Shown here: positions 1-28,111 of the stretch, one piece after another
How positions within the stretch are numbered: position 1 is the stretch's first letter
Layout of the letters: each line of letters opens with the position of its first letter
IMG/VR virus record: IMGVR_UViG_3300025030_000054
Coordinates: 32,001 to 96,000 of that record
From: a virus
DNA length: 64,000 nucleotides
Strand: one strand, 5' to 3'
Notes under the pieces: generated by a model
Told to the model about the DNA's origin: nothing
The model's input: the letters and a program-made list of their open reading frames with translations, nothing else
Databases searched by the model: none
Program-made: the position numbers and the translations under genes

Positions 1-334
1 TAGAGCTGAATTAGTAAGACGTAATGAAGAAGTTAAGGTTACTATACTAGAGAAAGTTGCGGAGCCTAGTAAATTTAGTAAGATAGGAATGTCTCACCCA
101 AGTCACCATTCAGGAGTATTTAGGCATGAAGATGTGCTTTTGATATCTTTAGATTGGTTGCAAAAATCTAGGTACACTGGATTTAAGTGGAATACTGGAT
201 TTGGAATTAACATGCACTATTTCGAGATAGGCCATACTCCTACTTTAACTCTCCCAATAAAAGTATGGCCAAAGATAAAAAAGGCTATCGAAGCGTACAA
301 CGAATGGGGTGCTGAAAATCCTATAGAGGAGTGA
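1..334 (+). CDS. Paralogue-family member 1 (5'-truncated by window edge)
   Basis: Frame is open from nt 2 (RAELVRRNEEVKVTILEK...) into the listed 89..334 ORF; ends WPKIKKAIEAYNEWG like the other family members. Confidence 0.85.
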   Translation, partial: RAELVRRNEEVKVTILEKVAEPSKFSKIGMSHPSHHSGVFRHEDVLLISLDWLQKSRYTGFKWNTGFGINMHYFEIGHTPTLTLPIKVWPKIKKAIEAYNEWGAENPIEE

Positions 335-340
335 TAATGA

Positions 341-631
341 ATGAAACATTTAAAACTAAGAGCCAGACTCGTTCCAAACTCCAAAGAAGCAATTGTTACT
401 GTAGTTGAGCAGACACATGGATACTACGAGTTTGGGAATAGTGCAGGTAAGTCACACTTCAGATGTTCAGAAGGAGCTATAAGTTCACACCCGATGACTG
501 TGCCACTAATGGGTTCTAATTTATGGCTAGGAACAGGGCCTGGAATAGAATTCATAATACAACAATCACGGTGGCCTAAAATCAAAAAGTTAGTAGAAGC
601 ATACAATGAATGGGGAGCAACTCAACCTTAA
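341..631 (+). CDS. Paralogue-family member 2
   Basis: MKHLKLRARL..VTVVEQTH..EFGN ... WPKIKKLVEAYNEWG. Confidence 0.9.
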   Translation: MKHLKLRARLVPNSKEAIVTVVEQTHGYYEFGNSAGKSHFRCSEGAISSHPMTVPLMGSNLWLGTGPGIEFIIQQSRWPKIKKLVEAYNEWGATQP

Positions 632-648
632 CCGAGGAGGAACTTATT

Positions 649-1380
649 ATGCCAGTTGGAGAATTTGATTACGCAAAAGCTTTAATACCCGTCTACGATA
701 GCTTGTATAACCGAGCCGTAGCACTCATGGACAGGTTCAACCCATGCAATGTCTGCGATGGAGTTTGTGAGAGGCACCGGAGGCAAGGGGGTAGGAATTT
801 CTGCTGTGACGGTTGCTTGTATTTAGGTAAAGAGGGTTGTAGCGTAAAGGCTCTACAATGTAAACTCTGGATTTGCCGCTATGACCTTGTAGCACCAGTC
901 AATAAGAGAGCCTTCGATTCAATCATGTGGGGTCTTATGATAGAGGCTGCTGGGTTTAATCTCTTGTACGCCAGAGGAAGTATGGAAGACGCTATAGCAC
1001 AGGCTTGCCGGTACTACATAGAACATAAAGATGAAAGGGACAAACTCATGAAGGCTGCTGTAGAGTTTCAACCCAAGCCTATCTTCTTTGCCCCTCCCGT
1101 TTCTTCGTCGGGGGCTATGAAGGCAGCTTTTCCGGCTGCTTACGGTAGGCATGTTGGAGGCATGGATAGCACTTATACAGGTGCTTACAAAGCATCTAAG
1201 CCTATCTTATCCAGAGAAGAACCTGTGGTTAAAAAAGAGGAACCAATAAGACACAATTCTTTCGCTTCCACCTACAAAAGCCTTTATGGAAAAACCTTAT
1301 TTGAAGACTTCGAACCGTCCCCAAAGTTCTTTAAAGAAGAGGAGCCTATGGTTGAAGTAGCAACTGGGGATCACGTATGA
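649..1380 (+). CDS. Hypothetical protein, Cys-rich N-terminal domain (possible Zn/Fe-S binding) and low-complexity C-terminus
   Basis: GAGGAGG RBS before ATG 649; CNVC..C..CCDGC..C..C..C cluster. Confidence 0.75.
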   Translation: MPVGEFDYAKALIPVYDSLYNRAVALMDRFNPCNVCDGVCERHRRQGGRNFCCDGCLYLGKEGCSVKALQCKLWICRYDLVAPVNKRAFDSIMWGLMIEAAGFNLLYARGSMEDAIAQACRYYIEHKDERDKLMKAAVEFQPKPIFFAPPVSSSGAMKAAFPAAYGRHVGGMDSTYTGAYKASKPILSREEPVVKKEEPIRHNSFASTYKSLYGKTLFEDFEPSPKFFKEEEPMVEVATGDHV

Positions 1381-1640
1381 AATTAATTACTCCTGAAACT
1401 ACTTTCGATATGGTTACGTTTGACCTAGAAAATCCTGCCATAGACCCCTTCGTAGAAAGGTTGAATGAACGGGAAAGGCTAGAAAGTGGGCACTGCTGGG
1501 TTTGTTGCAATGAGTTTGACAAGGGATCTGGAAAATTACTTAGAGAATCAGACCCTAACTGTTACGAAATAGCCAACCGTTTAGATGTTTGTCCAAGTTG
1601 TTGTGGAGTTGTTAACCCAGACGCCTTTAATTTCTACTGA
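1377..1640 (+). CDS. Small zinc-ribbon hypothetical protein
   Basis: ATGA overlap; CWVC...CPSC. Confidence 0.7.
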   Translation: MKLITPETTFDMVTFDLENPAIDPFVERLNERERLESGHCWVCCNEFDKGSGKLLRESDPNCYEIANRLDVCPSCCGVVNPDAFNFY

Positions 1641-1646
1641 GCTAAG

Positions 1647-1666
1647 AAATTGGTAATTACCTATTT
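1647..1666. promoter_or_regulatory. Palindromic operator-like site (variant)
   Basis: AAATTGGTAATTACCTATTT, immediately before the RBS of paralogue 3. Confidence 0.7.
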
Positions 1667-1677
1667 AGGAGGAACTG

Positions 1678-2016
1678 ATGCCAGATAGTAAAGAAAGGAG
1701 GTGGGAAGGTGAAAAGAAATGGATCAAGTATCGTGCTAAATTAACCACAGATAAGAAATCAGTAGCTGTTACTATTTTAGAGCAGAGTCATAGGAGCTAT
1801 AACTTTGGAGTGGGAGGTGAGGATGAGTTTAGGTATCTCGGCTACGGCATAGGCAGTATCGCTTATCCAGATACGACTTCTGTGTTCACGTACCTACGAG
1901 GCAGCGAAACCAGCCGAGACGACACAACCATATACATGCCACTAGAAATGTACCAGAAGTTCAAAGCTACAGTTCTAGCTTATAACAAGTATTTTAAAGG
2001 CGACTCAGAAGACTAA
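1678..2016 (+). CDS. Paralogue-family member 3
   Basis: KWIKYRAKL..VTILEQSH..NFG ... KFKATVLAYNKYFK; AGGAGG RBS. Confidence 0.9.
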   Translation: MPDSKERRWEGEKKWIKYRAKLTTDKKSVAVTILEQSHRSYNFGVGGEDEFRYLGYGIGSIAYPDTTSVFTYLRGSETSRDDTTIYMPLEMYQKFKATVLAYNKYFKGDSED

Positions 2017-2090
2017 CCAATTAATTTATCTGAGTCTAACTTCCACCCCCAGCCTAACTACAGGCTGTACAAGACTAAGGAGAATACAAA

Positions 2091-2483
2091 ATGAAACACA
2101 TTAAACTCGAAGTAGCAGCTAACCCGGAATTCAGCCAGACACTTATCCGCGTAGTTAGCCAGACCAACGTAGGCAAAAAGTTCGGCAACATGAAAGGCGA
2201 CCTGCGTAAATTCAAAGCGGCCAACGGTCTTACAATCGCTAGCAACCTGTTCCCCGCTAAAGATGAGGACTTCAGGAACACTCAGACGATTTGGCTTCAG
2301 GGTCTTGGCTCTGCATCTCAAAATGCTACTTGCCTTGCCCTCCCCAATGACGTGGCAGTTAAACTTTGCGAGGCTGTTGAGGAGTATAATGAGTACTATA
2401 CCCAAGCTAACGTTAACCGCCGCGTGCAAGCCAAGCGTGAAGCTGCGGCACTTCGTAGTGGCCGTGTCGAGTACGTTGGGTAA
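2091..2483 (+). CDS. Paralogue-family member 4 (C-terminally extended)
   Basis: MKHIKL..VVSQTN..KFGN..IWLQG..AVEEYNEYY; TAAGGAG RBS. Confidence 0.9.
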   Translation: MKHIKLEVAANPEFSQTLIRVVSQTNVGKKFGNMKGDLRKFKAANGLTIASNLFPAKDEDFRNTQTIWLQGLGSASQNATCLALPNDVAVKLCEAVEEYNEYYTQANVNRRVQAKREAAALRSGRVEYVG

Positions 2484-2602
2484 GTAATTTTAGGAGCTGC
2501 ATGTTCAAGTAATGTGCAGCTTCATTTTCACAGTCACTATTTACGGTAACCCGCTCAACTTCTAAAAGAGGTTGATACAAACATCCATAAGGAGAATACA
2601 AA

Positions 2603-3064
2603 ATGAAACACATCAACGCTAAAGTAATGATTCTTCCGAGCTTTTCCAAGGGACTCATCAAGATCACCGGCCAGACCCACATCAACACTGCTTTCGGTAA
2701 CTCTGATGACGGCAAAACCTTCACAGCTACTAACGGTATTACTCTCGGAAGTAACCGCCGAGTCGCTAGGGATGCTGACGAGGTAAACACCATCTGGCTT
2801 CGTGGCACGGATACTTCTAAAAATTACACTTCGCTTGCTATTCCGGTGAAACGTCTTGGTAAAGTTGTCGATGCTATTAAGGAGTATAACGAGTACTACT
2901 CCGTAGCTAGCATTAACCAGCGAGTCAGGACTAAACGCGCAGCAGAAGCCGAAGCAGCTCGTCAGGCACTTATCGAAGCAGCTCGTCAGGCAGAACTCGC
3001 AAGGCAGGCTGAACTTGCTCGCCGTGCTGTTACTTTCTCTTCCTGCACGTTCATCGTAGGTTAA
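2603..3064 (+). CDS. Paralogue-family member 5 (coiled-coil C-terminal extension)
   Basis: MKHINAK..GQTH..AFGN..IWLRG..AIKEYNEYY; ARQAELARQAELAR tail. Confidence 0.9.
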   Translation: MKHINAKVMILPSFSKGLIKITGQTHINTAFGNSDDGKTFTATNGITLGSNRRVARDADEVNTIWLRGTDTSKNYTSLAIPVKRLGKVVDAIKEYNEYYSVASINQRVRTKRAAEAEAARQALIEAARQAELARQAELARRAVTFSSCTFIVG

Positions 3065-3071
3065 TCAAAAA

Positions 3072-3407
3072 GTGCCCCCGCGAGAGCATAGGCACATAAA
3101 GTATAGAGCTGAATTGTTGAGTTGTAGGAGTCGGGTTAAAGTCATGGTCCTTGAGCAAACCCACAGGGGCCGTGACTTTGCTTTACCAGAGGATGGGAGT
3201 GCTCTATACTCAGGTGGTCAGAGTTTTGAGCATGAGAACACAATATTGGGAAGCTGGTCTTACCCAGAGTTTTTAGATGGCCGTGACTGGGTGGCCTTGC
3301 GGGGAGACAACCCAGCAAGAGACTTATACCCCATAACATTCCCAACTCTGCAATCTTACTACGATTTTAAAGCTGCTGTGCTTGCCTACAATGAGAGGTA
3401 TAAGTAA
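3072..3407 (+). CDS. Paralogue-family member 6
   Basis: RHIKYRAEL..VMVLEQTH..DF ... FKAAVLAYNERYK. Confidence 0.85.
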   Translation: MPPREHRHIKYRAELLSCRSRVKVMVLEQTHRGRDFALPEDGSALYSGGQSFEHENTILGSWSYPEFLDGRDWVALRGDNPARDLYPITFPTLQSYYDFKAAVLAYNERYK

Positions 3408-3463
3408 CTAAAATTAACAATCTGGCTCCAAACTGAGTCATACAAACTAAAGGAGGATTCTTT

Positions 3464-3652
3464 ATGAAACGACAGAATTTTGACGCACGGGTAACTGTAA
3501 AGAGAGAAGCCGCCGTAGAGAGGGCCGCTGAAAGGTCTAAAAGGACTCCACAGGAGCAGCTAGATATTCTTGACAGTAGACTTGGAAAGGGAATTGGTGC
3601 AATAAAAGAGAGGGCTAAACTGCTATCAATCATCAACAAGCAGGAGGGTTAA
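3464..3652 (+). CDS. Small basic hypothetical protein
   Basis: AGGAGG RBS; packed between neighbours. Confidence 0.7.
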   Translation: MKRQNFDARVTVKREAAVERAAERSKRTPQEQLDILDSRLGKGIGAIKERAKLLSIINKQEG

Positions 3653-3653
3653 T

Positions 3654-4046
3654 ATGAGAGAAATCCAAGAAGGGGATATTGTTAAAAGTAGTTACCAAAG
3701 TATCTCAGTGGGAATTGTTGAAAGAATTTTTGAGGAAGACGGAGATAGGGTTGCTAAAATAAGGTATAAATATTGCGGAAGTATTCACGCAGACGAGTAC
3801 AGTATAGAAGACTTCACTCTGTATGAAACTCTCCCAACCTTTGAGGCCGAAATAACAGGACTCGGTTGTGGGAGACATGTAGCTAGAACCAATGCTGACA
3901 CTGAAGAGGGAGCTGTCTGCTGGTTTAACAAATTTATCAAAGGGGACGTGACAGATGTACTCGGTAGACATATCTCAGAAATTGTTAAAGTGTCAAGTAA
4001 GTCAGACACTTCCTCACTTATTATAACTTATATCAAAGCAGTTTAG
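3654..4046 (+). CDS. Hypothetical protein, SH3/KOW-like start; paralogue of 7456..7869
   Basis: IQEGDIV..GIV; FEAEITGLGCG..NADTEEGA resembles FKATFVSLGRG..NQPTEAAA. Confidence 0.75.
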   Translation: MREIQEGDIVKSSYQSISVGIVERIFEEDGDRVAKIRYKYCGSIHADEYSIEDFTLYETLPTFEAEITGLGCGRHVARTNADTEEGAVCWFNKFIKGDVTDVLGRHISEIVKVSSKSDTSSLIITYIKAV

Positions 4047-4090
4047 CTACTAACCACATCGTAGTGCCTAGATAGTCCTTGGAGGGAAAA

Positions 4091-4354
4091 ATGAGCAACA
4101 AAGTGTTTTGCCACGATTGTGGGTTGCAGTATGGCGGAGATGCTTGGATAGAAGCTGTGGTGCCGGACCAGATATGGGATCAAATACGCCCGACAGGTAG
4201 TAGTAAGGGTTGTGGCATACTCTGTGTTTCATGCATTGCCCGGAGGCTGCGGATATTGGGAATGAAAGATGTTCCAGTATGGTTCTGTGGGACTGAGCCT
4301 TTAATTGCTGTCGGAGGAGACCCTTCGGACCGGTTAGACCTTTTGAGAGGATAG
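4091..4354 (+). CDS. Small zinc-finger protein
   Basis: GGAGG RBS; CHDC...W...LCVSC. Confidence 0.7.
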   Translation: MSNKVFCHDCGLQYGGDAWIEAVVPDQIWDQIRPTGSSKGCGILCVSCIARRLRILGMKDVPVWFCGTEPLIAVGGDPSDRLDLLRG

Positions 4355-4454
4355 GCTGTCTGTTACGGGCACAGTCTTATAGGGTAGCCCCGCACTTGTT
4401 TGCTAGAAAAATACTAGAAGGTAAATTTAACCAACCTTAAACCAACAACTAACC

Positions 4455-4474
4455 AAATAGGTAATTACCTAAAT
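4455..4474. promoter_or_regulatory. Palindromic operator-like site
   Basis: AAATAGGTAATTACCTAAAT (14-bp perfect palindrome core), just before the RBS of 4491. Confidence 0.8.
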
Positions 4475-4490
4475 CAACGGAGGGAACAAA

Positions 4491-6074
4491 ATGAAAGATT
4501 TGTTGAAAACTACTGGCACGGTTTTGAGAAAACATGGTCTTCCTGATACAATGCTTGAGAAACTGCACGATCAGATGCGTGATGCAAAGAGCAGCCTTGA
4601 CTCCACTCTCGGTCTTACAGAATCCACTCTTTTCCGTAAGTCTATCCCGCTTGCTAGGAAAGAGGCAGATGTGCGTAAAGATTATCCGCAGACCTATTCG
4701 GTAATTGCTCATGTTCTTCATCAGGCAATTCAGGCAGGTTCTCCGATTGACTTGGGTTCTGTTTCTCTGATTGAAAATACCGTGAAAGTCAAGAATCAGG
4801 AAAGTAAACTGTCTAGGGTACTGGCCAAGCAACTTAAAGGACAAGAGGAAGTGCTCAAGTATTGTATGCCTGAACTCGGTATCAGCAAACCTGAGCAGTT
4901 TCTTCCTAAACTTGGCGATATAGTAAAGTCTGGAAGGCAACTTTGGGTTTCGACCAACATACTTGATTTCATTTATGCGTCGGAACATGCCTCCTTTACT
5001 TCTTGCCATTCCCTCAGCGGGTGCCACTTCAACGGTAACTTGGCATACGCTAGGGATGGTCTGACCTTGATAACCTTCGTTTCTGACGAAAAGGCAACCG
5101 CAGCGCAGCATGAAATTTATAAGCTGGGAAGGAGCTGGATGTTTGTCGTGGATAATACAATCATACAGCCCAAGTCTTATGGCGCTTACTACGATTTTGA
5201 AAGGGACACTGCGAGGCTGTTTGTAGAAGAGAAGATCGCGGAGTCTCTAGGGGTAGAAAACAAGTGGAAGATCAAACGCGGCGGTAGCATTGGCGAGGTA
5301 TATTTTGAGGAGCCTAAAGATAAGTATGCCAGCTCTGGTAGTGGTGCGCTCTACCTTGACAACTATGATCTGGATATCTCCTACATGGGTTCGTATAATT
5401 CTCCTAGCGTAGAGTTTTCTGCAGCAATGTGCTTGGAGTGTGGCCAGACCACTGATTATACTCAGAAGGGAGTTTGCACAGAACATGACGGCAAAGTTAA
5501 AGCAACCTGCCCGATCTGCGGAGAAAGGCACATCACTCACAATATGTACAACGTTGGTGGGGAAGAAGGTACTGTCTGTTCAACGTGCTTTACCCTAGAG
5601 TTTGGTCAGTGCAATCAGTGTGGAAACTATCATCGTAAGGGTGCTTTGGAAACTATCGACGGTAGGTTTGTTTGTGCTCCCTGCAAACAAAACCACTACA
5701 CAACCTGCGATTGCTGCGGAACTTTTAGCAAAAAAGACAAACTGGCTAATCTGAAAGGTGTTGGAAATGCTTGCCTTTCGTGCCAAGATAAGTACATGCT
5801 CTGCTCAATCTGTGGCGACTATCATCTTAAATCTGACGTTGAGTATTACAAGTATGTCGGTCGGGTGTGCAAAGTCTGCGTCGAATTTAGCACCTTCCCT
5901 TGCATTTCCTGCGGAGAAGTTCACCCTATGTCTGACAGAAAGGTAACTGGAAAGGAATCTCTCTGTACTGCTTGTGAGGCTCGTAGGGAAGGAAAAGAAG
6001 TTACACTTAAGTTTAAGCCTAAGTACGCTGATCTTCCTGAAGGTTGGGACGACTATGTAGAAGAAGTCGGCTAA
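4491..6074 (+). CDS. Large protein with tandem CxxC zinc-ribbon repeats
   Basis: About 11 CxxC motifs in ~32-aa repeats (CxxCGxxH...VCxxC) in the C-terminal 200 aa. Confidence 0.85.
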   Translation: MKDLLKTTGTVLRKHGLPDTMLEKLHDQMRDAKSSLDSTLGLTESTLFRKSIPLARKEADVRKDYPQTYSVIAHVLHQAIQAGSPIDLGSVSLIENTVKVKNQESKLSRVLAKQLKGQEEVLKYCMPELGISKPEQFLPKLGDIVKSGRQLWVSTNILDFIYASEHASFTSCHSLSGCHFNGNLAYARDGLTLITFVSDEKATAAQHEIYKLGRSWMFVVDNTIIQPKSYGAYYDFERDTARLFVEEKIAESLGVENKWKIKRGGSIGEVYFEEPKDKYASSGSGALYLDNYDLDISYMGSYNSPSVEFSAAMCLECGQTTDYTQKGVCTEHDGKVKATCPICGERHITHNMYNVGGEEGTVCSTCFTLEFGQCNQCGNYHRKGALETIDGRFVCAPCKQNHYTTCDCCGTFSKKDKLANLKGVGNACLSCQDKYMLCSICGDYHLKSDVEYYKYVGRVCKVCVEFSTFPCISCGEVHPMSDRKVTGKESLCTACEARREGKEVTLKFKPKYADLPEGWDDYVEEVG

Positions 6075-6085
6075 ATCTTCTTCAA

Positions 6086-6124
6086 GGCTGTCTAGTTTTG
6101 CTTTTGTTAGGGGACTAGACAGCC
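6086..6124 (+). other. Intergenic stem-loop (processing site or weak terminator)
   Basis: GGCTGTCTAGT...ACTAGACAGCC 11-bp inverted repeat without a U-tract. Confidence 0.45.
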
Positions 6125-6164
6125 ACTGTAAGTAAACTTGGAAGAACCTAAAGGGGGACATAGA

Positions 6165-7463
6165 ATGGGTTATAAATTAAACACAATTCAAGAAGTGCTG
6201 GAAATGCCTACTGACGAAATGCTCCCAGCGTGTACAGATTACCTACTAGACTACTTTGAAGCTGACCCGAAGTCTGATCCGAAGGTTTACGTTTTGGAGG
6301 ATGATTTTGTATATGCCATCGGAGAAAGTCCTATCACTATCGTAGCGCACGTTGATACGGTTCGTGATAGATACATGCAAAAAGTGCCTACAAAAAATAC
6401 AGCCAACATAGTTCTAGCGAGTAGCAAGAAAGATGATTCGATGGTTCTTTGTCAAGACAGAAATGTTATCACAAACCTCAACGGAGTTCTGGGGGCCGAT
6501 GACAGAGCGGGAGTCTTCGGGTGCCTTGAGATAGTCAGACGTTGTAGTGAAGCTGGCTTACCTTTGCCAAGTGTCATTCTTACTAACGGGGAAGAGAGCG
6601 GGGGAATTGGTGTTGGGGCTTTTTGCAGATCTAAAATCTTTGAAGAACATGACAAAGGAAGGACCAAACTCTTTGTAGAAATGGACCGCTGCAACGCTAC
6701 AGAATGGGTTACTTACGGTGCTAAACTGCCTTCGGAAGTAGTTTCGTATGTTGAGTCGTTCGGATTCCATAAAGGTCATGGGTCATATTCTGATATAGCA
6801 GACTTGCAGGAGGAATATTTAATTCCTGCTGTAAACGTAAGTATCGGATATTACTCACAGCATTCGGCTTGTGAAAAACTTCATGTGGATGAGATGTACT
6901 TAACCATTGAGAGAGTTTTTCAAATGGTTAAAGATCCTATTGACAAACTCTATAAAGTAGATGCTGATGTTAAGGGCTATGGGTGGGATGAAGATTGGTA
7001 CAACCATTATAACCACAAAAACTATGTCAGTACTAACCACAACAAACCAAAAACAGAAACTCCTAAAACAACTACTAACAAGACTACCAAAGGAGTTACT
7101 TCATTTCCACAAGGCAAGCCTGGAAAAACTTCTGTTGATAATGCTCTGGATGCTATTACGAGGGGTGGATTTTGTATCAGTTGTGGGCATATCTGGAGTG
7201 ATTGCGAATGCGGCGAAATGCTTAAGGACATTGCAGCATACATGTACAAGGAAGAGATAGAGTTCCTCTTAGAGAACTACCTGTTTCCGGAAGATTCTAT
7301 GCATATTCTTCTCACTGCGTTTTTGGAAATGGAAAATGACCAGATTGCTGCAATAGACGTTGCTGTTGTGGCTGACGAAGGGACCAAGCTGCTAATTCAA
7401 AATAATGCTGTTGAGCAGTTTGCTAAAGAATCTGAGAATAACGAGGGGGTAGGAAATGCCTAA
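6165..7463 (+). CDS. M20/M28-family zinc peptidase-like protein
   Basis: AHVDTV, LGADDRAG, GEESGG, EMD, SDI, YYSQH metal-ligand pattern. Confidence 0.85.
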   Translation: MGYKLNTIQEVLEMPTDEMLPACTDYLLDYFEADPKSDPKVYVLEDDFVYAIGESPITIVAHVDTVRDRYMQKVPTKNTANIVLASSKKDDSMVLCQDRNVITNLNGVLGADDRAGVFGCLEIVRRCSEAGLPLPSVILTNGEESGGIGVGAFCRSKIFEEHDKGRTKLFVEMDRCNATEWVTYGAKLPSEVVSYVESFGFHKGHGSYSDIADLQEEYLIPAVNVSIGYYSQHSACEKLHVDEMYLTIERVFQMVKDPIDKLYKVDADVKGYGWDEDWYNHYNHKNYVSTNHNKPKTETPKTTTNKTTKGVTSFPQGKPGKTSVDNALDAITRGGFCISCGHIWSDCECGEMLKDIAAYMYKEEIEFLLENYLFPEDSMHILLTAFLEMENDQIAAIDVAVVADEGTKLLIQNNAVEQFAKESENNEGVGNA

Positions 7464-7869
7464 GTTTAAGAGAGGAGATTTTGTACTAGATACCTACTAT
7501 GCTAGGCTAGGAATTGTTGCTGACACTGGCCAACACCGAATCAGAATATACCTACCTGACACTGATAGGTACCAAAATGAGAGCCCTAGCTACCTGAAAC
7601 CTCTAAAACGATCTTTCAAAGCTACCTTCGTGTCACTTGGCAGGGGTTCGGTAACAGCCATTATAAACCAACCCACAGAAGCTGCTGCTAGAGCTAGAGC
7701 TGCTAAACTAATTTCTAATTCTAGTCTAAGGGATAGCTGTGGGAATAGGCTTGAATCTTTAGGCTGGACTTATCCTTCATGTGAGGGGGCGAAAGAACTT
7801 AAGCCGATTCTAGTTCACTTAGAAGACTTAACCCCTATGCTTGAAGAAGGGCTGACTCATTTAACTTGA
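7456..7869 (+). CDS. Hypothetical protein, paralogue of 3654..4046
   Basis: FKRGDFV..LGIV; shared LGxG..NxxTExxA motif. Confidence 0.75.
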   Translation: MPKFKRGDFVLDTYYARLGIVADTGQHRIRIYLPDTDRYQNESPSYLKPLKRSFKATFVSLGRGSVTAIINQPTEAAARARAAKLISNSSLRDSCGNRLESLGWTYPSCEGAKELKPILVHLEDLTPMLEEGLTHLT

Positions 7870-7879
7870 GGAGGTACCT

Positions 7880-8434
7880 ATGGGGCATCATAAAGAGCTA
7901 CCTGAATCTGTGAAACAACATGCAGATAGGGTAGGTAGATTGGCCAGACTATCTGCAAGAGCTACTGGCAAAGACGAGAGAGCAGCTTATCTTGCGGGTA
8001 TTTTTCACGATGACGGGAAAGCTACCTTGCCTCCTGAACTGTTTGACGGCAGGGAGATAACCTTAGAAGAGTACTTGCTAATCAAAGAACACGCTATAAG
8101 AGGCTACCTTGATCTAAAAGAGAGGATGCCCTTCACCGGACTATGCTCTGGTTTACACCATGAAATGTCTGTGGTGGACGGCTATGGAATTACTTTGGAG
8201 GATATCCCTAAAGAATTATCTTTCGCAGACCTTAAAAAGATTTTAGACATTGCCACCATAGTTTCCATCGCAGACTTCATAGATGCTTATAATACTAGGA
8301 AGACTTCAATAGGACTTGGTGGTGCTAAAAAATTGGGGCTGAAAGAACTTCTCTGTAATAGGTACCCCTCAGAAATCCCTTTAGTGACTGTGATGTTGGA
8401 ATTGAGCGAAGAATTGTACAAACAAACCACCTGA
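7880..8434 (+). CDS. Stand-alone HD-GYP-like phosphohydrolase
   Basis: H..RV..LA, AGIFHDDGK, IKEH..GY, HHE...DGYG, IVSIADFIDA. Confidence 0.8.
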   Translation: MGHHKELPESVKQHADRVGRLARLSARATGKDERAAYLAGIFHDDGKATLPPELFDGREITLEEYLLIKEHAIRGYLDLKERMPFTGLCSGLHHEMSVVDGYGITLEDIPKELSFADLKKILDIATIVSIADFIDAYNTRKTSIGLGGAKKLGLKELLCNRYPSEIPLVTVMLELSEELYKQTT

Positions 8435-8455
8435 GAAACCAAAAGGAGAAATAAT

Positions 8456-9274
8456 ATGGATGAGAATAGCAAGCAGGGAGGTGAGGTGATTGAGAGTGTG
8501 GATTTAGGTAATACCAATTTAGAGCCTAAGCACAGGGAAAATTCATCTAAAGAATTATTTCAAAAAGATCCGGCAAGGTATTGGTACATTGAAGGAATGA
8601 GAGACGAAATAGAGTTACTGTACGAAGAGGCGGCTACTAAATACACCGCTGCGTACACTCAGGCAATTAGGGAAGGTAGATCTTCCGCGTTGCCTTACAA
8701 GTGGGAAGCCATGCGGTGTATTGAATTTGCAGCGATTTATAAAGGTTTAATGGATGAATGGGCAGCTACTAAAAATACTGGCCGAATGATTGACGAGCAT
8801 CAGCACATGGTTCACTGGTATGATGAGAAATCAGTGGTACCAAAAGAATTACTCGACGTGTACAAGAAAAAGGTTCCTGCGGGATTTCTATATAACGTAG
8901 TAATATATAACAGAGAAAATAAACAATGCCGGTTTGTCCACTCACTAGATTATCATAAGGACTCTGACCCTCTTATGGATAGAGAGTATGTTGCATATCC
9001 TGGAGGGTTTGTTCAGGCAAATGTGTATATCAAAGACCCTGAAGTTATCTTTCACAAGTGGATGTTAACCTCTAATAAACTTAATGACACACACGATTTC
9101 AGGAATGCGGTTAAGAGAAGCATCAGACTGAGGTACTTGCAAATGCCTGATTCGCTTAGACAAGAAATGCACAAGAGTAGTGTGTACAAAAAGTATGTGG
9201 CTCCCGCTATTGGAAATCGTAGTGTGGGTAGTTTGTTCGATGACTTTGTTGCCTACAAGGCTGGGTTAGTATGA
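8456..9274 (+). CDS. Hypothetical protein
   Basis: 272-aa ORF with AGGAG RBS; no recognisable motif. Confidence 0.75.
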   Translation: MDENSKQGGEVIESVDLGNTNLEPKHRENSSKELFQKDPARYWYIEGMRDEIELLYEEAATKYTAAYTQAIREGRSSALPYKWEAMRCIEFAAIYKGLMDEWAATKNTGRMIDEHQHMVHWYDEKSVVPKELLDVYKKKVPAGFLYNVVIYNRENKQCRFVHSLDYHKDSDPLMDREYVAYPGGFVQANVYIKDPEVIFHKWMLTSNKLNDTHDFRNAVKRSIRLRYLQMPDSLRQEMHKSSVYKKYVAPAIGNRSVGSLFDDFVAYKAGLV

Positions 9275-9600
9275 AAAAATATCTTAAAGTTCGTGGAGAG
9301 TTGGTCTACCCAGATAACAAATTCGTTCGTATGACAGTGCTAGAAAATAGTCATGATGGTTATGAGTTTGGTGGGAACTCTGATGGCAGGCTTGGTGGTT
9401 ATGTATTTGTAACTGGAAGAATCAGACTTAGGGCCACTAAAACAGCACTTCCAAGTTTTTATGTAGCTCCTGCAGGCACATATTATGTATGGGTAACTCT
9501 AGGAAACCCAATAGGCGGCTCTATCCTAATACCCATAGAGTACTGGAAAGAAGTTAAAGAAGCTGTTCTAACCTACAACGAATGGGGGAAATCTCAATGA
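9271..9600 (+). CDS. Paralogue-family member 7
   Basis: KYLKVRGEL..TVLENSH..EFGG ... WKEVKEAVLTYNEWG. Confidence 0.9.
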   Translation: MKKYLKVRGELVYPDNKFVRMTVLENSHDGYEFGGNSDGRLGGYVFVTGRIRLRATKTALPSFYVAPAGTYYVWVTLGNPIGGSILIPIEYWKEVKEAVLTYNEWGKSQ

Positions 9601-10211
9601 AACATTTAAAACTACGTGCTGAATTGGATAAGATAGATAAAAATTTCTGTTTTGTGGAGGTAGTTGAGCAGACACATAGGAGGTTAGATTTTGGGGTTAC
9701 TTTTAGTGGAGCCGGTTCTTTTGCTCATGGAGAGATTATGCTAGTGTCTTATGGAGAACCTCAGTGGGTTAACCACGGATTTGGCCGGGGTGGACATTCA
9801 GGGGTAGCCTTCCGGTTGTATGTACGGGGTCATCAAGAACAAAGAGATAAAGATAAAGTGAGAGTACCTACAAACATGTGGCCTAAAATAAAAGCTGCTG
9901 TTTTGGCTTATAATGAATTTTATTCTGGTAATAAAGAGGTGAAGAAAGAGAGTAAGGTAGAACCAGTAGTTAAAGCGACTGTTAAAAGTAAGGCTGATAA
10001 AGAATCTGACTGGGGCAGAATAACCAAAGAGTCTTTTGAGAAGTGCCTTGCTCAATATACTTCCACACTGGACACTGAATTTATTTATAGTGACTCAGTA
10101 GTAGAAGCGCCGCCAAGTCCACGGTGGCAAGCTACAAGGCGTACCTTTAACACTGATTTAAGGGGCTACATTACTTCTGCCTATTTTTTGGATGACCTTA
10201 ATGGCGACTAA
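9597..10211 (+). CDS. Paralogue-family member 8 (C-terminally extended)
   Basis: ATGA overlap at 9597; MKHLKLRAEL..VVEQTH..DFG ... WPKIKAAVLAYNEFY plus ~95-aa tail. Confidence 0.9.
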   Translation: MKHLKLRAELDKIDKNFCFVEVVEQTHRRLDFGVTFSGAGSFAHGEIMLVSYGEPQWVNHGFGRGGHSGVAFRLYVRGHQEQRDKDKVRVPTNMWPKIKAAVLAYNEFYSGNKEVKKESKVEPVVKATVKSKADKESDWGRITKESFEKCLAQYTSTLDTEFIYSDSVVEAPPSPRWQATRRTFNTDLRGYITSAYFLDDLNGD

Positions 10212-10398
10212 AAAACTTATCAGCCTGAGTCTAACAAAAGATGAAATAGCTCTGCTAGACACTCTTGTAATTATTGCAGAAAATAGAGCTATAAACCCCA
10301 AGCAAGTGAACAGAAGTACAGTTATCCGCGACCTTATGGTAAACTCCATGAGAGAGATACAGAGTACTAAAACTTCTCAAGGAGGTAACAATGAGTAA
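10201..10398 (+). CDS. Ribbon-helix-helix (CopG/Arc-like) DNA-binding protein
   Basis: KLISLSLTKDEIALLD ... NRSTVIRDLM: beta-strand/helix/helix pattern. Confidence 0.7.
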   Translation: MATKKLISLSLTKDEIALLDTLVIIAENRAINPKQVNRSTVIRDLMVNSMREIQSTKTSQGGNNE

Positions 10399-10723
10399 AG
10401 AAAATGGGGCAGAAAGGGTGACTGTAACTATTGAAGCACCGCCTAGCTTTTCTGTTGTTGAATACATTGAGTTGGTAAAGCAGGAAGGCTACAAAAATGA
10501 TTACATGAATTTCAACTTCGACCAACTTCTTGAAGATCTTCCTAAAGCCATGAAATCGTTTACAAATGACATAGTAGCCAAAGCAATACTTTCGCATAGT
10601 TATGGAGAGATGCTGGCAAAACATTTTAGAAATTGGGTCAGGGGAAACATGGACGAGACCTTAGAGTACGCTTGTGGTGGGGCTAGCATCGGAGAAGACG
10701 AGGAGGGACTTGCTGAATGTTAA
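10391..10723 (+). CDS. Hypothetical protein
   Basis: AGGAGG RBS; overlapping neighbours. Confidence 0.7.
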   Translation: MSKENGAERVTVTIEAPPSFSVVEYIELVKQEGYKNDYMNFNFDQLLEDLPKAMKSFTNDIVAKAILSHSYGEMLAKHFRNWVRGNMDETLEYACGGASIGEDEEGLAEC

Positions 10724-11310
10724 AAGTAGAAAACATCGGAGTGTTTAATATTGAAGGTGCTTTCAGGGGCATGAGAAATCCTTTGGAAAGTTGGGATAAG
10801 TCGGACAATGGAGGACCGAAAGATTTAGCTCTGGCAAAGAAACTAGTAGCTGCTGGAACGGATCATAGTAAATTCATGAGGCAGATTTTTGTAAGCATGG
10901 ATATCACTACCTCTATGAGTCTTTGGAGTGAACTTGACACATACAAGGTAAGCACAGTAAGAAACAGCACCAGCCGTATGCACCGTCTCGGCTCCAGACT
11001 TTTAACTGCTGAGGATTTTAGTTGGGACAATGAAGAAGGTATTGTAGAATTGACTCCTTACAGAGAATCTTTTCTAAAGGAAATAAATACCCGTATAACA
11101 GTTTGGCAGGAAACTAAGGATAAGAATCTTTGGAGGCAGATAGTTCTTGACCTACCTGCTAGTTATAATTTTCTAAGTACTTGGACAGGTAACTATCAGG
11201 TACTGAGAGCAATTTATCATGCCCGTAAGAACCATAAGCAAAGAGAATTTAGAGAGTTATGTGGCGAGGTAATTGCTAAATTGCCTTACAGTGAACTTAT
11301 TACAGATTAA
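10717..11310 (+). CDS. ThyX/Thy1-like protein (phage type)
   Basis: GMRNP..SWDKSD, HSKFMRQIFV, WSELDTYKV, NSTSRMH, RKNHK; canonical RHR motif absent. Confidence 0.65.
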   Translation: MLKVENIGVFNIEGAFRGMRNPLESWDKSDNGGPKDLALAKKLVAAGTDHSKFMRQIFVSMDITTSMSLWSELDTYKVSTVRNSTSRMHRLGSRLLTAEDFSWDNEEGIVELTPYRESFLKEINTRITVWQETKDKNLWRQIVLDLPASYNFLSTWTGNYQVLRAIYHARKNHKQREFRELCGEVIAKLPYSELITD

Positions 11311-11320
11311 GGAGGAGTCT

Positions 11321-11743
11321 ATGAAAGTCGGTGACATTATAGGGGCTGGAGACGGAACTTTGATAGGCTTAACATGCAGTATTGAAAGTATACAAGGTAA
11401 GCAAATAGATGCTTGGGTTATTAATGGAGAATGGAATATTACTTTCTTTTTAGATAATAGAGCCACTATATGTCACTCTCCAGAAGGTCCAAGAGAGTTG
11501 CCTAGACAGAAAATTATGACAACATTCCCGATTCCTAAAGGACTAAATTATAATGAGCAGTTAGAGTATATGAATAAGCAATTTAGCAGCAGCCCTATAA
11601 TTAGGTATACTACCGGCAAACTCTTAATGGTTAGGATGTGGGCATCTAAAATTCAAGATTCTTTAGCAGCAGCCTCAGTAGCATTTAAAAAGACATGGAA
11701 AGGAGAACCAGAAGATATCTCTGATAGCGATATCCCATTCTAA
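11321..11743 (+). CDS. Hypothetical protein
   Basis: AAGGAGG RBS; ends SDSDIPF. Confidence 0.7.
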   Translation: MKVGDIIGAGDGTLIGLTCSIESIQGKQIDAWVINGEWNITFFLDNRATICHSPEGPRELPRQKIMTTFPIPKGLNYNEQLEYMNKQFSSSPIIRYTTGKLLMVRMWASKIQDSLAAASVAFKKTWKGEPEDISDSDIPF

Positions 11744-11760
11744 AAATTAAAGGAGACTAA

Positions 11761-13119
11761 ATGAAAGAATTTCAAGTGCTTAAAGATATTCAAAATACTA
11801 CCTCCAAAAAAGAAAAAGAGGCCATCTTGTATTGTAATGATTCAGAGACTCTTAGAAAGATGCTTCTGTACTGTTACTCTCCGCTTCTCACGTACAGAGT
11901 TAAACAGATTGATTTTCCAGATAAATATAACACTGTCCAGCCAGATATTTCTGATGAACTGTTCCGACTACTTGACCTACTAGCTACACACACGGTCGGG
12001 ACAAATGACGCTAAAGCTATGATTAAAAGATTGCTAGCTAAGTGTACGGAAGATGGTGCTAATTGGGTTTGTAAAATAATTAGTAAAGACCTTAAGATAG
12101 GGATTTCTGAGTCAACCATCAACAAAGCTTTTCCTGACCTTGTGCCTACTTTTAAGGTTCAATTAGCACTTCCGATGACTGAGCCTAAATCTGGGGAAAC
12201 TAGGTGGGACACAATTACTTACCCTAACTCTTGGATTCAGGAAGTTAAGCTAGACGCTCTTAGGTGCGTTGCTCTGTGTGATGGTGAAAAAGTTATATTT
12301 AGTAGCCGTGAAGGGTTTGAATTTGAGTCTTTAGATTTCCTGGCCAGCGAAGTTTTGAAGTTAGCTCAAGGTCGTGCTATAGTTTTAGACGGTGAAATTG
12401 TAGCGACTACTTACAATCCAAACTGTAAGGTTGCTAAAAAGAACTTTGAAGCAGGAACTAAATGGGTATTTCCTCAATCAAGTAGCATGGTCCGTTCAAG
12501 CAAAGGTTCATACACTGAAGAGGAAATGAAAAGGTGCCTTACCTACGTAGTTTGGGATGTTGTTAGTTACGACTACTTTCTGAGCCAAGGGAAAGAAGGA
12601 ACTTGCAAGCCTCTAAGGTACCGTAAAACTGAACTGGCGGGTATGTTTGAGGCGACTTCTGAACTTTCTAACATAAAGCGGATTTCAAGTAGACCTGTAG
12701 AATCTAAGGAAGGGGCTGTCGAATATCACAAAGAAATGATTGACCGAGACGAAGAAGGCACGATGCTGAAAGATCTTGATGCTGTTTATGAGTTTAAAAG
12801 GTCGCCTACTGTGTTGAAATTAAAAGACTTTTTTACAAGTGACCTGAGAATCATAGGAGCAGTAGAAGGTACTAAAGGTTCTAAGTATGAAATGTCTTTG
12901 GGCACTTTGGTAGTCAGTGACGATGCAGATTTGGTTAGTGAGGTGGGAACTGGAATTGACGACGATCTTAGGTTAAACATGTGGTTCAGGCATAAACGAG
13001 GAGAACTTGTTGGGGGAATTGTTGAAGTAATTTTTCAGGAACGCACGGCAGATAATAGTTTGAGACTCCCTGTGTTCGTTAGAGAGCGTCCTGAAAAAAT
13101 GGAAGTTTCGTGGGGCTGA
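11761..13119 (+). CDS. ATP-dependent DNA ligase
   Basis: Motif I EVKLDALR, III VLDGEI, IIIa YVVWD, IV EGTMLK, V LKLK, OB-fold EVGTG..LRLPVF. Confidence 0.95.
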   Translation: MKEFQVLKDIQNTTSKKEKEAILYCNDSETLRKMLLYCYSPLLTYRVKQIDFPDKYNTVQPDISDELFRLLDLLATHTVGTNDAKAMIKRLLAKCTEDGANWVCKIISKDLKIGISESTINKAFPDLVPTFKVQLALPMTEPKSGETRWDTITYPNSWIQEVKLDALRCVALCDGEKVIFSSREGFEFESLDFLASEVLKLAQGRAIVLDGEIVATTYNPNCKVAKKNFEAGTKWVFPQSSSMVRSSKGSYTEEEMKRCLTYVVWDVVSYDYFLSQGKEGTCKPLRYRKTELAGMFEATSELSNIKRISSRPVESKEGAVEYHKEMIDRDEEGTMLKDLDAVYEFKRSPTVLKLKDFFTSDLRIIGAVEGTKGSKYEMSLGTLVVSDDADLVSEVGTGIDDDLRLNMWFRHKRGELVGGIVEVIFQERTADNSLRLPVFVRERPEKMEVSWG

Positions 13120-13128
13120 TTGGTAGCA

Positions 13129-13148
13129 AAATAGGTAATTACCTAAAT
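13129..13148. promoter_or_regulatory. Palindromic operator-like site
   Basis: AAATAGGTAATTACCTAAAT, before the RBS of paralogue 9. Confidence 0.8.
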
Positions 13149-13165
13149 CTTAAGGAGGGGGTACA

Positions 13166-13540
13166 ATGAAGCACCTTAAAATACGGGCAGAGTACAGACC
13201 TGCCACAAAAGACGTAGAAGTAACTTTATTAGAGCAGTCGCATTTTGGTACTGATTTCGGTAGGATAGAAGATGCTTTTAAGATTGATCCAAAAAATAAT
13301 TGTGTGTTTAAACATAATGGTGTGGCGATTTATAGCCATATCACTTACAATAGAACCCCAATCTATTTTCACAAAAACAAGTACTCAAACGAAGTAAACA
13401 AAATTACCACTTGGATTTGCTTAGGAGATAGTTCCTCAATATTCAAACAAACTAAAGTAGAAAACACAGTGCCGATTGCTGAATGGCCAGCCTTGAAAGC
13501 AGCTATTGAAGCCTACAACGAATGGGGAGTTATCCAATGA
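13166..13540 (+). CDS. Paralogue-family member 9
   Basis: MKHLKIRAEY..VTLLEQSH..DFG ... WPALKAAIEAYNEWG. Confidence 0.9.
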   Translation: MKHLKIRAEYRPATKDVEVTLLEQSHFGTDFGRIEDAFKIDPKNNCVFKHNGVAIYSHITYNRTPIYFHKNKYSNEVNKITTWICLGDSSSIFKQTKVENTVPIAEWPALKAAIEAYNEWGVIQ

Positions 13541-13887
13541 AACATTTAAAAATTAGAGGGGAACTTGTAAAAGAAGCTAAGGATAAAGTTAAAGTAACCA
13601 TTCTGGAACAGACGCATTTCTTTAGAGAGTTCGGTAATGTTACAGATAAAATGGCTGGCTCTGCCTTTATTCATGGAGAAGGGATTTTGCACAGCGACGG
13701 AGAAGAGCCTTTATACAGCGGCAAAAATTCATACGCCGGACCTGACGCAAAGTACTACCACTGGCTATTTGTTAATGGGCAATCACACCACAAAGGCGAT
13801 GTTGTGGAACCTATAACACTAGAGGCTTGGGCAGTTTTGAAAGAAACTGTGAAGGCTTACAACGAATGGGGAGCAGATCAACCTTAG
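13537..13887 (+). CDS. Paralogue-family member 10
   Basis: ATGA overlap; MKHLKIRGEL..VTILEQTH..EFGN ... WAVLKETVKAYNEWG. Confidence 0.9.
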   Translation: MKHLKIRGELVKEAKDKVKVTILEQTHFFREFGNVTDKMAGSAFIHGEGILHSDGEEPLYSGKNSYAGPDAKYYHWLFVNGQSHHKGDVVEPITLEAWAVLKETVKAYNEWGADQP

Positions 13888-13900
13888 AGGAGAAACTACT

Positions 13901-15004
13901 ATGTCGATTTTAGATAAATTTGCCTCACTTATTCCACTTGAAGATTTAGAAGAAGGAGCTAAACAACAAATTTACAACATCCTGAAACTTGACTGTTTAA
14001 AGAAACTTGCATTGATGCCAGATGCCCACCAAGGCTATGATATGCCTATTGGTGGAGTGGCTTTGCTAGACGGATTTATCTCAGCTAGCTTCGTGGGCTA
14101 TGATTTGGGATGCGGCGTATGCCATATAGCTACTGAAGAAAACGCAGAAGACTACTCAAAAGATGATTTACAACACATTTATAAGACTATCCACAAGACT
14201 ATTCCGACAGGGTTTTCTTCACATTATCATTCTAAAGACTATCTTCCTAAGTTTAAGTCTGCGATTCTTGATAAACAGACCACTGACAGAATAGCAGAGA
14301 AGGTTGACTTTCAGCTTGGTACACTAGGCGGTGGAAACCACTTCATAGAAATTGGAAGCAATAGGAAAGGTAAACTGGCGGTAACTATCCATTCTGGCTC
14401 TAGGAATGTGGGACATACTATCGGCGGGGCTTATATGAAGATGGGTCGTATGTTTGAACTTTCTTCGGAACTAGGTCAGTCTTACCTGAGAGACATGAAC
14501 TACGCACTTGACTGGGCTTTGGAAAACAGAATGCAAATGATGCGGAAGGTTTTAGAAGCAATTGGGATTAATAATAAAAATATAACGGTAGTCTTGAAGG
14601 ACGTTATAAACGAGAACCATAATCATGCTGTAGTTACTTCTGAAGGTGTTTTGCACCGTAAGGGAGCTACTCCTGCTGATTTAGATCAACTTGGTATTAT
14701 TCCGGCTAACATGCGAGACGGAGTTTATATTACTAGGGGTTTAGGTAATACCGAATTTTTGTCATCAGCTAGTCACGGTTGCGGTAGGCTTATGGGAAGG
14801 AACGTAGCTAAGAAATCTCTAGACTACGATGAATTCGTAACTCAGATGGAAGGTATTGTATGCTCCACCGACAGAAGCATTTTAGATGAGGCTCCAAATG
14901 CCTATAAAGATGTTAACTATGTGCTTGATGCTCAAGTTGGTAGGACTGTGGAAGTTGTTGATTTTATTAAGCCTTTGCTAAATATTAAAGCAGGAGGAGA
15001 CTAA
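13901..15004 (+). CDS. rtcB: RtcB-family RNA ligase
   Basis: MPDAHQG..PIGG, VGYDLGCG, QLGTLGGGNHFIE, HSGSR, HRKGAT, SASHGCGR, DEAPNAYK. Confidence 0.95.
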   Translation: MSILDKFASLIPLEDLEEGAKQQIYNILKLDCLKKLALMPDAHQGYDMPIGGVALLDGFISASFVGYDLGCGVCHIATEENAEDYSKDDLQHIYKTIHKTIPTGFSSHYHSKDYLPKFKSAILDKQTTDRIAEKVDFQLGTLGGGNHFIEIGSNRKGKLAVTIHSGSRNVGHTIGGAYMKMGRMFELSSELGQSYLRDMNYALDWALENRMQMMRKVLEAIGINNKNITVVLKDVINENHNHAVVTSEGVLHRKGATPADLDQLGIIPANMRDGVYITRGLGNTEFLSSASHGCGRLMGRNVAKKSLDYDEFVTQMEGIVCSTDRSILDEAPNAYKDVNYVLDAQVGRTVEVVDFIKPLLNIKAGGD

Positions 15005-15007
15005 CCA

Positions 15008-15352
15008 ATGAGCAGACACCTAAAAATAAAAGCACAATTAAATCTAGATAAAAAGACAGCAACTCTCACGTGGATTTCTCAAACTCATTTTGGAAGTAAT
15101 TTTGGAAATAGTAGGCCGGTTGGTAGTTATATGTTTGACAGTAGCTCCTTCAATATTGGCAACTTTAGTCTTGTAAGTCATCCTGACAACGAGTTCAGAA
15201 AAGCGAGGTTAAGCCTGCCTAGTAATAAAAATAATAAATGGTTTTTGGTACCTTGTCGAATCAATCCGTGGAATCCAACCACTACAATAGAAGTAGAAGA
15301 CTGGCCTTGGATTAAAAAACTGGTGGAATCTTACAATGAATTTTACAAATAA
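15008..15352 (+). CDS. Paralogue-family member 11
   Basis: RHLKIKAQL..WISQTH..NFGN ... WPWIKKLVESYNEFYK. Confidence 0.9.
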   Translation: MSRHLKIKAQLNLDKKTATLTWISQTHFGSNFGNSRPVGSYMFDSSSFNIGNFSLVSHPDNEFRKARLSLPSNKNNKWFLVPCRINPWNPTTTIEVEDWPWIKKLVESYNEFYK

Positions 15353-15366
15353 GGAGGTACCTAAAA

Positions 15367-17598: not shown

Positions 17599-17617
17599 AA
17601 TTGGTAATTACCTAAAA
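17598..17617. promoter_or_regulatory. Palindromic operator-like site (variant)
   Basis: AAATTGGTAATTACCTAAAA before the RBS of 17631. Confidence 0.7.
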
Positions 17618-28101: not shown

Positions 28102-28111
28102 GGAGGTTAAA

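Follow-up and report, generated by a model that had tools for sequence, protein, structure and literature searches.

A previously undescribed, phage-restricted family of small proteins kept in many divergent copies by a lineage of uncultured siphoviruses

Introduction

This paper concerns a family of small proteins, built on a domain of about 110 residues, that is encoded in many copies by the virus of IMG/VR record IMGVR_UViG_3300025030_000054 (105,687 bp, estimated completeness 93%); the window referred to throughout is the 64,000-nucleotide stretch formed by bases 32001-96000 of that record. Several described systems resemble this family in part. Viral multigene families and genomic accordions, such as those of poxviruses and African swine fever virus (ASFV) and the segmental amplifications of counter-defence genes in T4 and T6, share with it the clustering of many small-protein paralogues in a non-structural region, a copy number that differs between relatives and faster-than-average sequence change (PMC9391042 and PMC13096335). 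The immunity-protein arrays of polymorphic toxin systems are likewise tandem sets of small divergent paralogues, thought to neutralise different protein toxins (PMC3482391). At the level of the fold, PH-like and bacterial PH domains (PF08000, PF03703, PF14470) are antiparallel beta sandwiches of about 110 aa, closed by a C-terminal helix and carrying basic residues on the first strands, as the present domain is predicted to be (Xu et al., 2010; PMC2817789).

A sequence-only reading of the window had drawn attention to eleven open reading frames (ORFs) with shared ends around a variable core, and had proposed one scaffold whose variable surface binds many different targets, expanded by duplication and shuffled via the conserved ends. 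The work described here shows that these ORFs belong to a previously undescribed, phage-restricted domain family, whose copies persist as ancient, deeply diverged paralogues, with gains and losses at fixed positions in the genome.

A phage-restricted domain family

All eleven ORFs lie on the plus strand where they had been placed, are mutually alignable and match a family profile built from them with E values of 1e-33 to 1e-47. When the profile was run against the whole virus record, four additional domains were found to the left of the window, where the family had been suspected to continue (genome 21291, two at 25964, and 29711). The genome thus holds 15 domains in 14 ORFs (profile E 1e-13 to 1e-47), which make up 5.7% of the DNA and roughly 9% of the genes, and pairwise identity between the 15 domains is 14-45%, with a median of 26%. 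The first window member had been described as keeping only part of the N-terminal motif; it has indeed lost the Q-T-H residues, but its start is intact (MKRHLK...), the ORF being merely cut by the window edge and beginning 20 nt further left. The family ORFs are all intact, each is preceded by a Shine-Dalgarno sequence, and they are tightly packed with their neighbours, with translational coupling a frequent feature; two pairs of family genes overlap by ATGA (4-nt overlap).

The sequence-only reading had not recognised the family, and the curated libraries likewise hold no housekeeping or other domain that matches it. Searches of Pfam-A, PHROGs v4, NCBIfam 20 and PADLOC 2.0 with 10 full-length members yielded nothing above noise, and in a Pfam scan of 109 family members at E<=10 no single Pfam family was matched by more than two of them. 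The best hit of a profile search against all PDB chain sequences had an E of 0.53, and tblastn with two members against 50,697 GenBank phage records gave no match even at E<=1. Peptide-pattern and degenerate-motif scans of 185,579 prokaryote genomes (GTDB, one per species) produced chance matches only, all 20 of 20 motif matches failing the profile. Relatives do exist among metagenomic proteins: a HMMER search of 1.84 billion cluster representatives returned 537 at E<=1e-3, 181 of these at E<=1e-10. Those that were looked up are unnamed proteins, several of them on contigs of 64-134 kb, and the family was found on phage-like contigs only. The nearest metagenomic proteins are P0008 (81%) and P0153 (65%). 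Of the retrieved matches, 129 are single-domain proteins and 29 carry two to five domains in tandem; no fusion to a known domain was seen, only family repeats and extensions without known relatives.

Two candidate relatives were rejected. Fusobacterium phage Fnu1 provided two weak structural neighbours in BFVD, yet no profile match at E<=1, and two small paralogues upstream of rtcB in relatives that lack the family (L021), considered as remote members, are winged-helix regulators.

Predicted fold and conserved residues

An AlphaFold2 model of member 10 (members are numbered as in the list given below), based on a 109-sequence alignment, had a predicted local distance difference test score (pLDDT) of 93 and a predicted template-modelling score (pTM) of 0.87. 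Its six to seven strands include residues 4-11, 14-25, 43-46, 49-53, 59-65 and 73-79, and a helix spans 95-112; the predicted fold is a beta sandwich capped by the C-terminal helix, PH-like in outline. The proposal of one scaffold is supported by this confident prediction of a common fold, with conserved strands and helix and length-variable loops.

The modelled fold appears to have no convincing solved counterpart. Foldseek found no match to the member 10 model in the PDB (best E 0.46) and only uncharacterised phage proteins in BFVD (best probability 0.97, TM 0.55). An exhaustive VIA-align comparison with 48,161 PDB representatives reached a best Z of 5.1 over 50 aligned residues, short of the Z 7-8 that the tool gives as usual even for models without a match. 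These weak matches are enriched in PH-type structures (FERM C-lobe, Z 5.1; Akt PH, Z 4.2; Avo1, Brag2, ASAP1, Spt16 and Rtt106; Z 3-5.1 with about 50 of 116 residues aligned), and they include the immunity protein DddI (6u08_B, Z 4.0), a point of likeness to immunity-protein arrays. In the ESM Atlas, a feature search gave no match; clusters of bacterial PH (bPH) domains neighbour the family there via a poor model, and the structure neighbours in that resource stem from poor models. Membership of a PH family was rejected at the sequence level, there being no Pfam match among the 109 members at E<=10 and no PF08000 in the genome, and hhalign of the family alignment against three Nocardia bPH_2 domains, a thin template, gave a probability of 0.04%.

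Conservation was measured on 215 domains aligned to the profile. The N-terminal block comprises strands 1-2 and the following turn (K2, H3, I/L4, K5, V18, V20, I22, E24, Q25, T/S26, H27, F32, G33), with Q25 present in 91% of domains, T or S at position 26 in 97%, H27 in 87%, F32 in 99% and E24 in 68%, while H3, K5 and H27 are absent in about 13-17%. The C-terminal block is the helix, with an aromatic residue at 98, K102, A104, V105, Y108 (97%) and N109 (100%). The core between them, 42-80 aa long, had been judged unalignable by eye, which goes too far: it is less conserved than the ends (1.02 bits per column versus 2.05 and 2.09) but keeps as anchors F44, L51, S53 (88%), P58, a (L/V/F)-Y-(V/L)-R-G strand and D87. 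Variation in both sequence and length is found at about residues 11-17, 34-43 and 54-92. The pattern is that of a normal small domain with three length-variable stretches, its conserved polar and basic residues gathered near the chain ends; the fixed scaffold carries the basic and polar set K2, H3, K5, Q25, H27, S53, K102, Y108 and N109. The isoelectric point (pI) has a median of 9.1 and is at least 7.7 in 41 of 57 family ORFs from three genomes, some members being acidic (pI 4.6-6.5). Two possible metal sites were considered and dropped: an ATCUN (N-terminal X-X-His) site, because internal domains of multi-domain proteins keep the histidine without a free N-terminus, and a His-His-Glu triad, because E24 is so often replaced.

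A subset of members carries a C-terminal tail. In 23 of 160 retrieved proteins (about 14%), the very C-terminus is C-(A/S/T)-(V/I/Y/F/E)-(I/V)-(I/V/L)-G, preceded by an Ala/Pro/Lys-rich or Ala/Arg/Gln-rich linker, and all eight ORFs of at least 60 aa that end in this motif in three genomes are family members. Tethered adaptors such as SspB consist of a substrate-binding domain, a flexible linker and a short C-terminal docking peptide. The tailed subfamily has the same layout, with a folded domain of about 110 aa, an Ala/Pro/Lys-rich linker and a conserved terminal hexapeptide.

Copy number and turnover among relatives

The proposed expansion by copy number is evident among relatives, which hold 1 to 30 copies per record. 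Two complete, syntenic genomes with terminal repeats, whose core proteins are about 46-76% identical to those of the present genome (G000), carry 30 domains in 29 ORFs (G001, 113,142 bp, 9.8% of the genome) and 15 domains in 14 ORFs (G004, IMGVR_UViG_3300025010_000004, 113,294 bp). Fragmentary records have four, one and one copies, and more distant phages with an RtcB at 47-68% identity have none. The early region has a conserved backbone of genes for CCA-adding-enzyme-like, RNA-ligase-like and GluRS-like proteins, a Cys-rich 256-aa protein, a 527-aa zinc-ribbon protein, a peptidase-like protein, an HD protein, a DNA ligase and a helicase, and the family copies occupy the same gaps between these genes, with 1-7 copies per gap.

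One-to-one conservation of the copies, which the sequence-only reading had named as evidence that would count against it, is not observed: slot copy number varies from 1 to 7, and an extra copy in the partial relative G008 is only 42% identical to any copy in the present genome. A tree of 45 domains from G000 and G001 has the shape of a star; its terminal branches measure about one change per site, and the genome labels are interleaved (14 changes needed, versus a shuffled mean of 12.7); the paralogues are therefore older than the split between the phages, and not one-to-one. With 14, 29 and 14 ORFs in the three syntenic genomes, and with copies that do not pair off, the family shows birth and death. 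Compared with G001 and G004, family members have a best-reciprocal identity of 36-37%, other genes one of 48-51%. Recent gene amplification of the accordion type was ruled out, as paralogues share at most 45% amino-acid identity and exact nucleotide matches of at most 21 nt, and repeats at their ends are 65-80% identical.

No relative closer than G008 was found in scans with the 527-aa neighbour, RtcB and P0006, a metagenomic homologue of the two-domain protein described below. Three records (G010, L024, L100) are 100% identical to G004, and hence without polymorphism. It was also observed that G004 and contigs from samples 3300001242 and 3300025000 are 100% identical over more than 30 kb in total, with zero substitutions across three differently numbered samples.

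Rate of change and exchange

Rates were estimated against G008, a 59-kb fragment that starts near the ligase of the present genome and provides only three family orthologue pairs. For 46 non-family orthologue pairs, the medians were 88% identity, a nonsynonymous rate (dN) of 0.073, a synonymous rate (dS) of 0.56 and a ratio of the two (omega) of 0.12. The family pairs and two flanking genes compare as follows.

Member 9: identity 69%, dN 0.21, omega 0.44
Member 10: identity 75%, dN 0.15, omega 0.30
Member 11: identity 69%, dN 0.22, omega 0.23
Flanking ligase: identity 94%, dN 0.031, omega 0.06
Flanking helicase: identity 96%, dN 0.018, omega 0.06

Family dN in these three pairs is two to three times the genome median; these pairs have diverged faster than that median and much faster than the flanking genes, yet not to an extreme degree. 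Pooling the three pairs by region gave the following values.

N-terminal block: identity 84%, dN 0.09, dS 0.39
Middle: identity 61%, dN 0.29, dS 0.94
C-terminal block: identity 94%, dN 0.02, dS 0.15

Changes concentrate in the middle. Omega stays below 1 everywhere; the scaffold is under purifying selection and the loops change faster. At unchanged amino acids, the rate of silent differences was 0.19 in the N-terminal block, 0.31 in the middle, 0.07 in the C-terminal block and 0.20 in the ligase and helicase together (middle versus ends, p=0.003; middle versus flanking genes, p=0.005). This excess silent divergence could mean that middles have been swapped with more distant alleles, although it is only a hint from three pairs; it could equally stem from nucleotide-level constraint on the start region and the embedded ribosome-binding site at the ends, or from a dS that differs between genes. 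In the pairs formed by members 7 and 8 and by members 9 and 10, the last codons of the upstream gene, GAA TGG GGx (E-W-G), form a G-rich, Shine-Dalgarno-like run for the next gene (9582-9596 and 13522-13536), which for member 8 is GGGGG at 8-12 nt upstream of the start. The low silent divergence of the C-terminal block may be due to this run.

For the suggestion that copies are shuffled via their conserved ends, no sign of recent events was found. Exact nucleotide matches between paralogues extend to 21 nt at most, and identical residues share codons about as often as expected in the N-terminal block (0.43 observed, 0.42 expected) and the middle (0.35 and 0.34) and slightly more often in the C-terminal block (0.54 and 0.45). 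Identity among the DNA repeats at the conserved ends is 65-80%, and the sole repeat of at least 90% identity and at least 25 nt in positions 1-16000 is the 29-nt ribosome-binding-site and start region of members 4 and 5, apart from short palindrome sites. No near-identical template and variable repeat pair of the kind expected of a diversity-generating retroelement was found in 1-16000, no specific search for a reverse transcriptase having been made.

Members and genomic setting

The eleven members in the window, in window coordinates, are as follows.

Member 1: 1..334, plus strand; 117 aa, ORF from genome 31981; Q-T-H degenerate (EKVA); profile E 5.9e-26
Member 2: 341..631, plus strand; 96 aa, the shortest; profile E 1.2e-24
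Member 3: 1678..2016, plus strand; 112 aa with a 12-aa N-terminal extension; palindrome GGTAATTACC 17 nt upstream
Member 4: 2091..2483, plus strand; 130 aa; basic C-terminal tail ending RVEYVG (degenerate tail motif); N in place of H27
Member 5: 2603..3064, plus strand; 153 aa; domain, Ala/Arg/Gln-rich linker and C-terminal hexapeptide CTFIVG
Member 6: 3072..3407, plus strand; 111 aa, GTG start
Member 7: 9271..9600, plus strand; 109 aa; stop overlaps the start of member 8 (ATGA)
Member 8: 9597..10211, plus strand; 204 aa; domain at about residues 1-117, then a C-terminal extension of 85-90 aa
Member 9: 13166..13540, plus strand; 124 aa; palindrome upstream at 13134-13143; first of a pair directly upstream of rtcB
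Member 10: 13537..13887, plus strand; 116 aa; the protein used for the structure model
Member 11: 15008..15352, plus strand; 114 aa; directly downstream of rtcB

Member 4 is the closest paralogue of member 5 (45% identity), and the 85-90-aa extension of member 8 shows no family match. Left of the window, the ORF at genome 25964-27064 encodes 366 aa with two family domains, and its C-terminal 145 residues consist of two beta-rich repeats of about 65 aa (R/K-W/Y-F-V-R-T ... G-K-V/F-V ... L-P-x-G ... W ... N-C-V-E-I), which matched no known family; the homologue P0006 has three copies of this repeat. A model of the two-domain protein (pLDDT 73, pTM 0.47) places its domains without rigid packing.

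The family genes lie in the early/middle, replication-side block and share their orientation with the genes for the polymerase, helicases, SbcC and NrdD, while the tail genes are on the opposite strand. As for the neighbours that had been named, RtcB, an ATP-dependent DNA ligase and a peptidase-like protein were confirmed, whereas the HD protein (window 7880-8434), taken to be HD-GYP-like, matches only PF01966. The phage has a group of RNA-repair and tRNA-related genes. One of them, rtcB (13901-15004, plus strand; PF01139, E 1.5e-75), is an accessory gene, since G008 lacks it at this site and G001 lacks it altogether. Left of the window, at genome 22319-29665, the CCA-adding-enzyme-like, RNA-ligase-like and GluRS-like ORFs were recognised by eye only. 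A 527-aa protein (4491-6074, plus strand), with no Pfam or PHROG match, has in its C-terminal half about six zinc-ribbon-like C-x2-C ... C-x2-C repeats; the family-rich G001 and G004 have it at 48% identity, while five other records gave no match, and this co-occurrence with the family is confounded by relatedness.

The palindrome GGTAATTACC (extended core TAGGTAATTACCTA) occurs six times, versus 0.06 expected, at the following positions.

Palindrome GGTAATTACC: 1652-1661, 4460-4469, 13134-13143, 17603-17612, 34528-34537, 47106-47115

At the three sites inspected it is intergenic, about 15-30 nt upstream of the start of a gene or cluster, and two of these precede members 3 and 9. Its probable role is that of a phage-specific promoter, operator or terminator; scans for sigma-70 promoters and for terminators gave results at chance level.

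The phage belongs to a deep-branching, uncultured siphovirus lineage. Its family-A DNA polymerase (27950-30631, plus strand) shares only about 25% identity with its best match among 1,671 GenBank phage records (Bacillus SP-10-like and Vibrio phages), and the phage also encodes an anaerobic NrdD, SbcC-like proteins and a lambda-J-like central tail fibre.

Function and alternatives

The idea of a scaffold with a variable surface is reasonable, and the function favoured here, tentatively and somewhat short of even confidence, is that the copies are soluble binding modules, each paralogue with a surface of its own, deployed at an early stage of infection to take over the host or counter its defences. 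The variable loops of each copy would recognise a different macromolecule, most likely host-derived, during early infection, and the family as a whole would constitute a host-takeover or counter-defence repertoire. Multi-domain forms would confer multivalency. Members that carry a flexible Ala/Pro-rich linker and a terminal C-x-hydrophobic(3)-G peptide, roughly 14% of the total, would all attach to one common partner. With 15-30 versions of a single scaffold retained, all of them old, intact and divergent, the phage presumably directs them at many different partners.

Several points weigh against such binding modules. No binding, target or defence link emerged from any tool applied, and the location of the variable loops on one face is predicted from strand topology only. 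The conserved polar residues N109, Y108, Q25 and H27 are atypical of pure protein-binder scaffolds and could form a shared ligand or catalytic site, and the basic median pI fits nucleic-acid binding equally well. Omega by region in the pooled orthologue pairs is 0.16-0.31 and nowhere reaches 1. Nor is the family an outlier: among non-family genes, about a third match the three family pairs in dN and about a fifth match them in omega.

The main rival explanation, doubtful though to be taken seriously, is that the proteins are modules that bind RNA, tRNA or DNA. A basic patch (K2, H3, K5, R7, H27, K100, K102) would hold the phosphate backbone and F32, F44 and Y108 would stack on bases, while the sequence or structure preference of each copy would come from its loops, as in the shielding or sorting of particular tRNAs or transcripts in a phage rich in RNA repair. 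Conserved basic and aromatic columns agree with this, as do the basic pI of most ORFs and tandem arrays of two to five domains, which resemble the usage of KH, RRM and S1 modules. The copies are interleaved with RtcB, the DNA ligase and the HD protein and, outside the window on its left, with the RNA-ligase-like, CCA-adding-enzyme-like and GluRS-like genes, and the finding of no tRNA genes in the window is also counted in support. Nevertheless, the acidic members do not fit, the structure searches yielded no convincing known nucleic-acid-binding fold, and the adjacency to RtcB is not kept in G008 or G001.

An unlikely but more far-reaching possibility is that the family is a phage adaptor repertoire, a functional analogue of F-box/SspB-type adaptors, in which the basic/polar end of the scaffold (or the tail peptide in the tailed subfamily) would dock all paralogues on a common hub while the loops capture differing host proteins or RNAs. 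The hub would be a host machine (protease, polymerase, membrane) or a phage protein. If this is true, one phage lineage could redirect or neutralise dozens of host factors, defence proteins included, with a single new fold.

Rather improbable is the alternative of small enzymes, for example phosphoesterases or transferases acting on nucleotides, RNA ends or signalling molecules, in which H3, K5, Q25, H27, S53, Y108 and N109 would make up an active site, with substrate choice governed by the loops. The near-invariance of polar columns across the 215 domains (N109, Y108, Q25, T/S26) and the setting among nucleotide and RNA-repair enzymes would suit this role. However, H3, K5 and H27 are each absent from some domains, member 1 lacks Q-T-H and member 4 has N for H27; moreover, 15-30 copies and chains of two to five domains are unusual for enzymes, and no enzyme fold or family was matched.

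The cargo-loading peptides of encapsulin systems are short, conserved and C-terminal, and come after a flexible linker. On this model, or in the style of T4 internal proteins, the family could consist of proteins loaded into the virion and co-injected with the DNA, the conserved part or tail being a packaging signal and the variable part the payload. The layout of the tail matches the encapsulin design and the tail motif is family-specific; this explanation is nonetheless very improbable, since the genes belong to the replication-side block, distant from the tail genes and on the other strand, the tail is limited to about 14% of members, and the conserved N-terminus is predicted to form integral strands 1-2 (pLDDT 96-97) rather than a detachable leader. 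Least probable of all is a functionless or selfish expansion of drifting duplicates, for although identity among paralogues is only 14-45% and copy number is free to vary, all copies are intact ORFs that have ribosome-binding sites, the omega values indicate purifying selection in all regions, scaffold residues are retained over 215 domains, and the paralogues are old rather than recent debris.

In this deep-branching siphovirus lineage, with genomes of about 110 kb, the family accounts for about 9-17% of genes and as much as a tenth of the DNA. Under the favoured reading of diversified binding modules, the identities of the partners could reveal new mechanisms of host takeover or counter-defence, a new compact binding scaffold and a new terminal docking peptide. 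If the proteins are instead binders of RNA or small ligands, they would form a new class of phage nucleic-acid or ligand binders.

Comparison with known systems

Each of the systems to which the family may be likened also differs from it. The alignment with PH-like domains covers about 50 of 116 residues at Z <=5.1, under the noise level of the tool. Compared with the immunity-protein arrays of polymorphic toxins, the family has no adjacent toxin genes, matches no Pfam immunity family and occurs on phage-like contigs only. It has no sequence or fold match to SspB, and most of its members are without a tail. T4-type internal proteins differ in that the present proteins have no detachable N-terminal leader and are not located with late or structural genes. 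Finally, in contrast to the recent high-identity amplifications of viral accordions, the copies found here are ancient (14-45% identity, with a longest shared run of 21 nt), and the domain that they carry is new.

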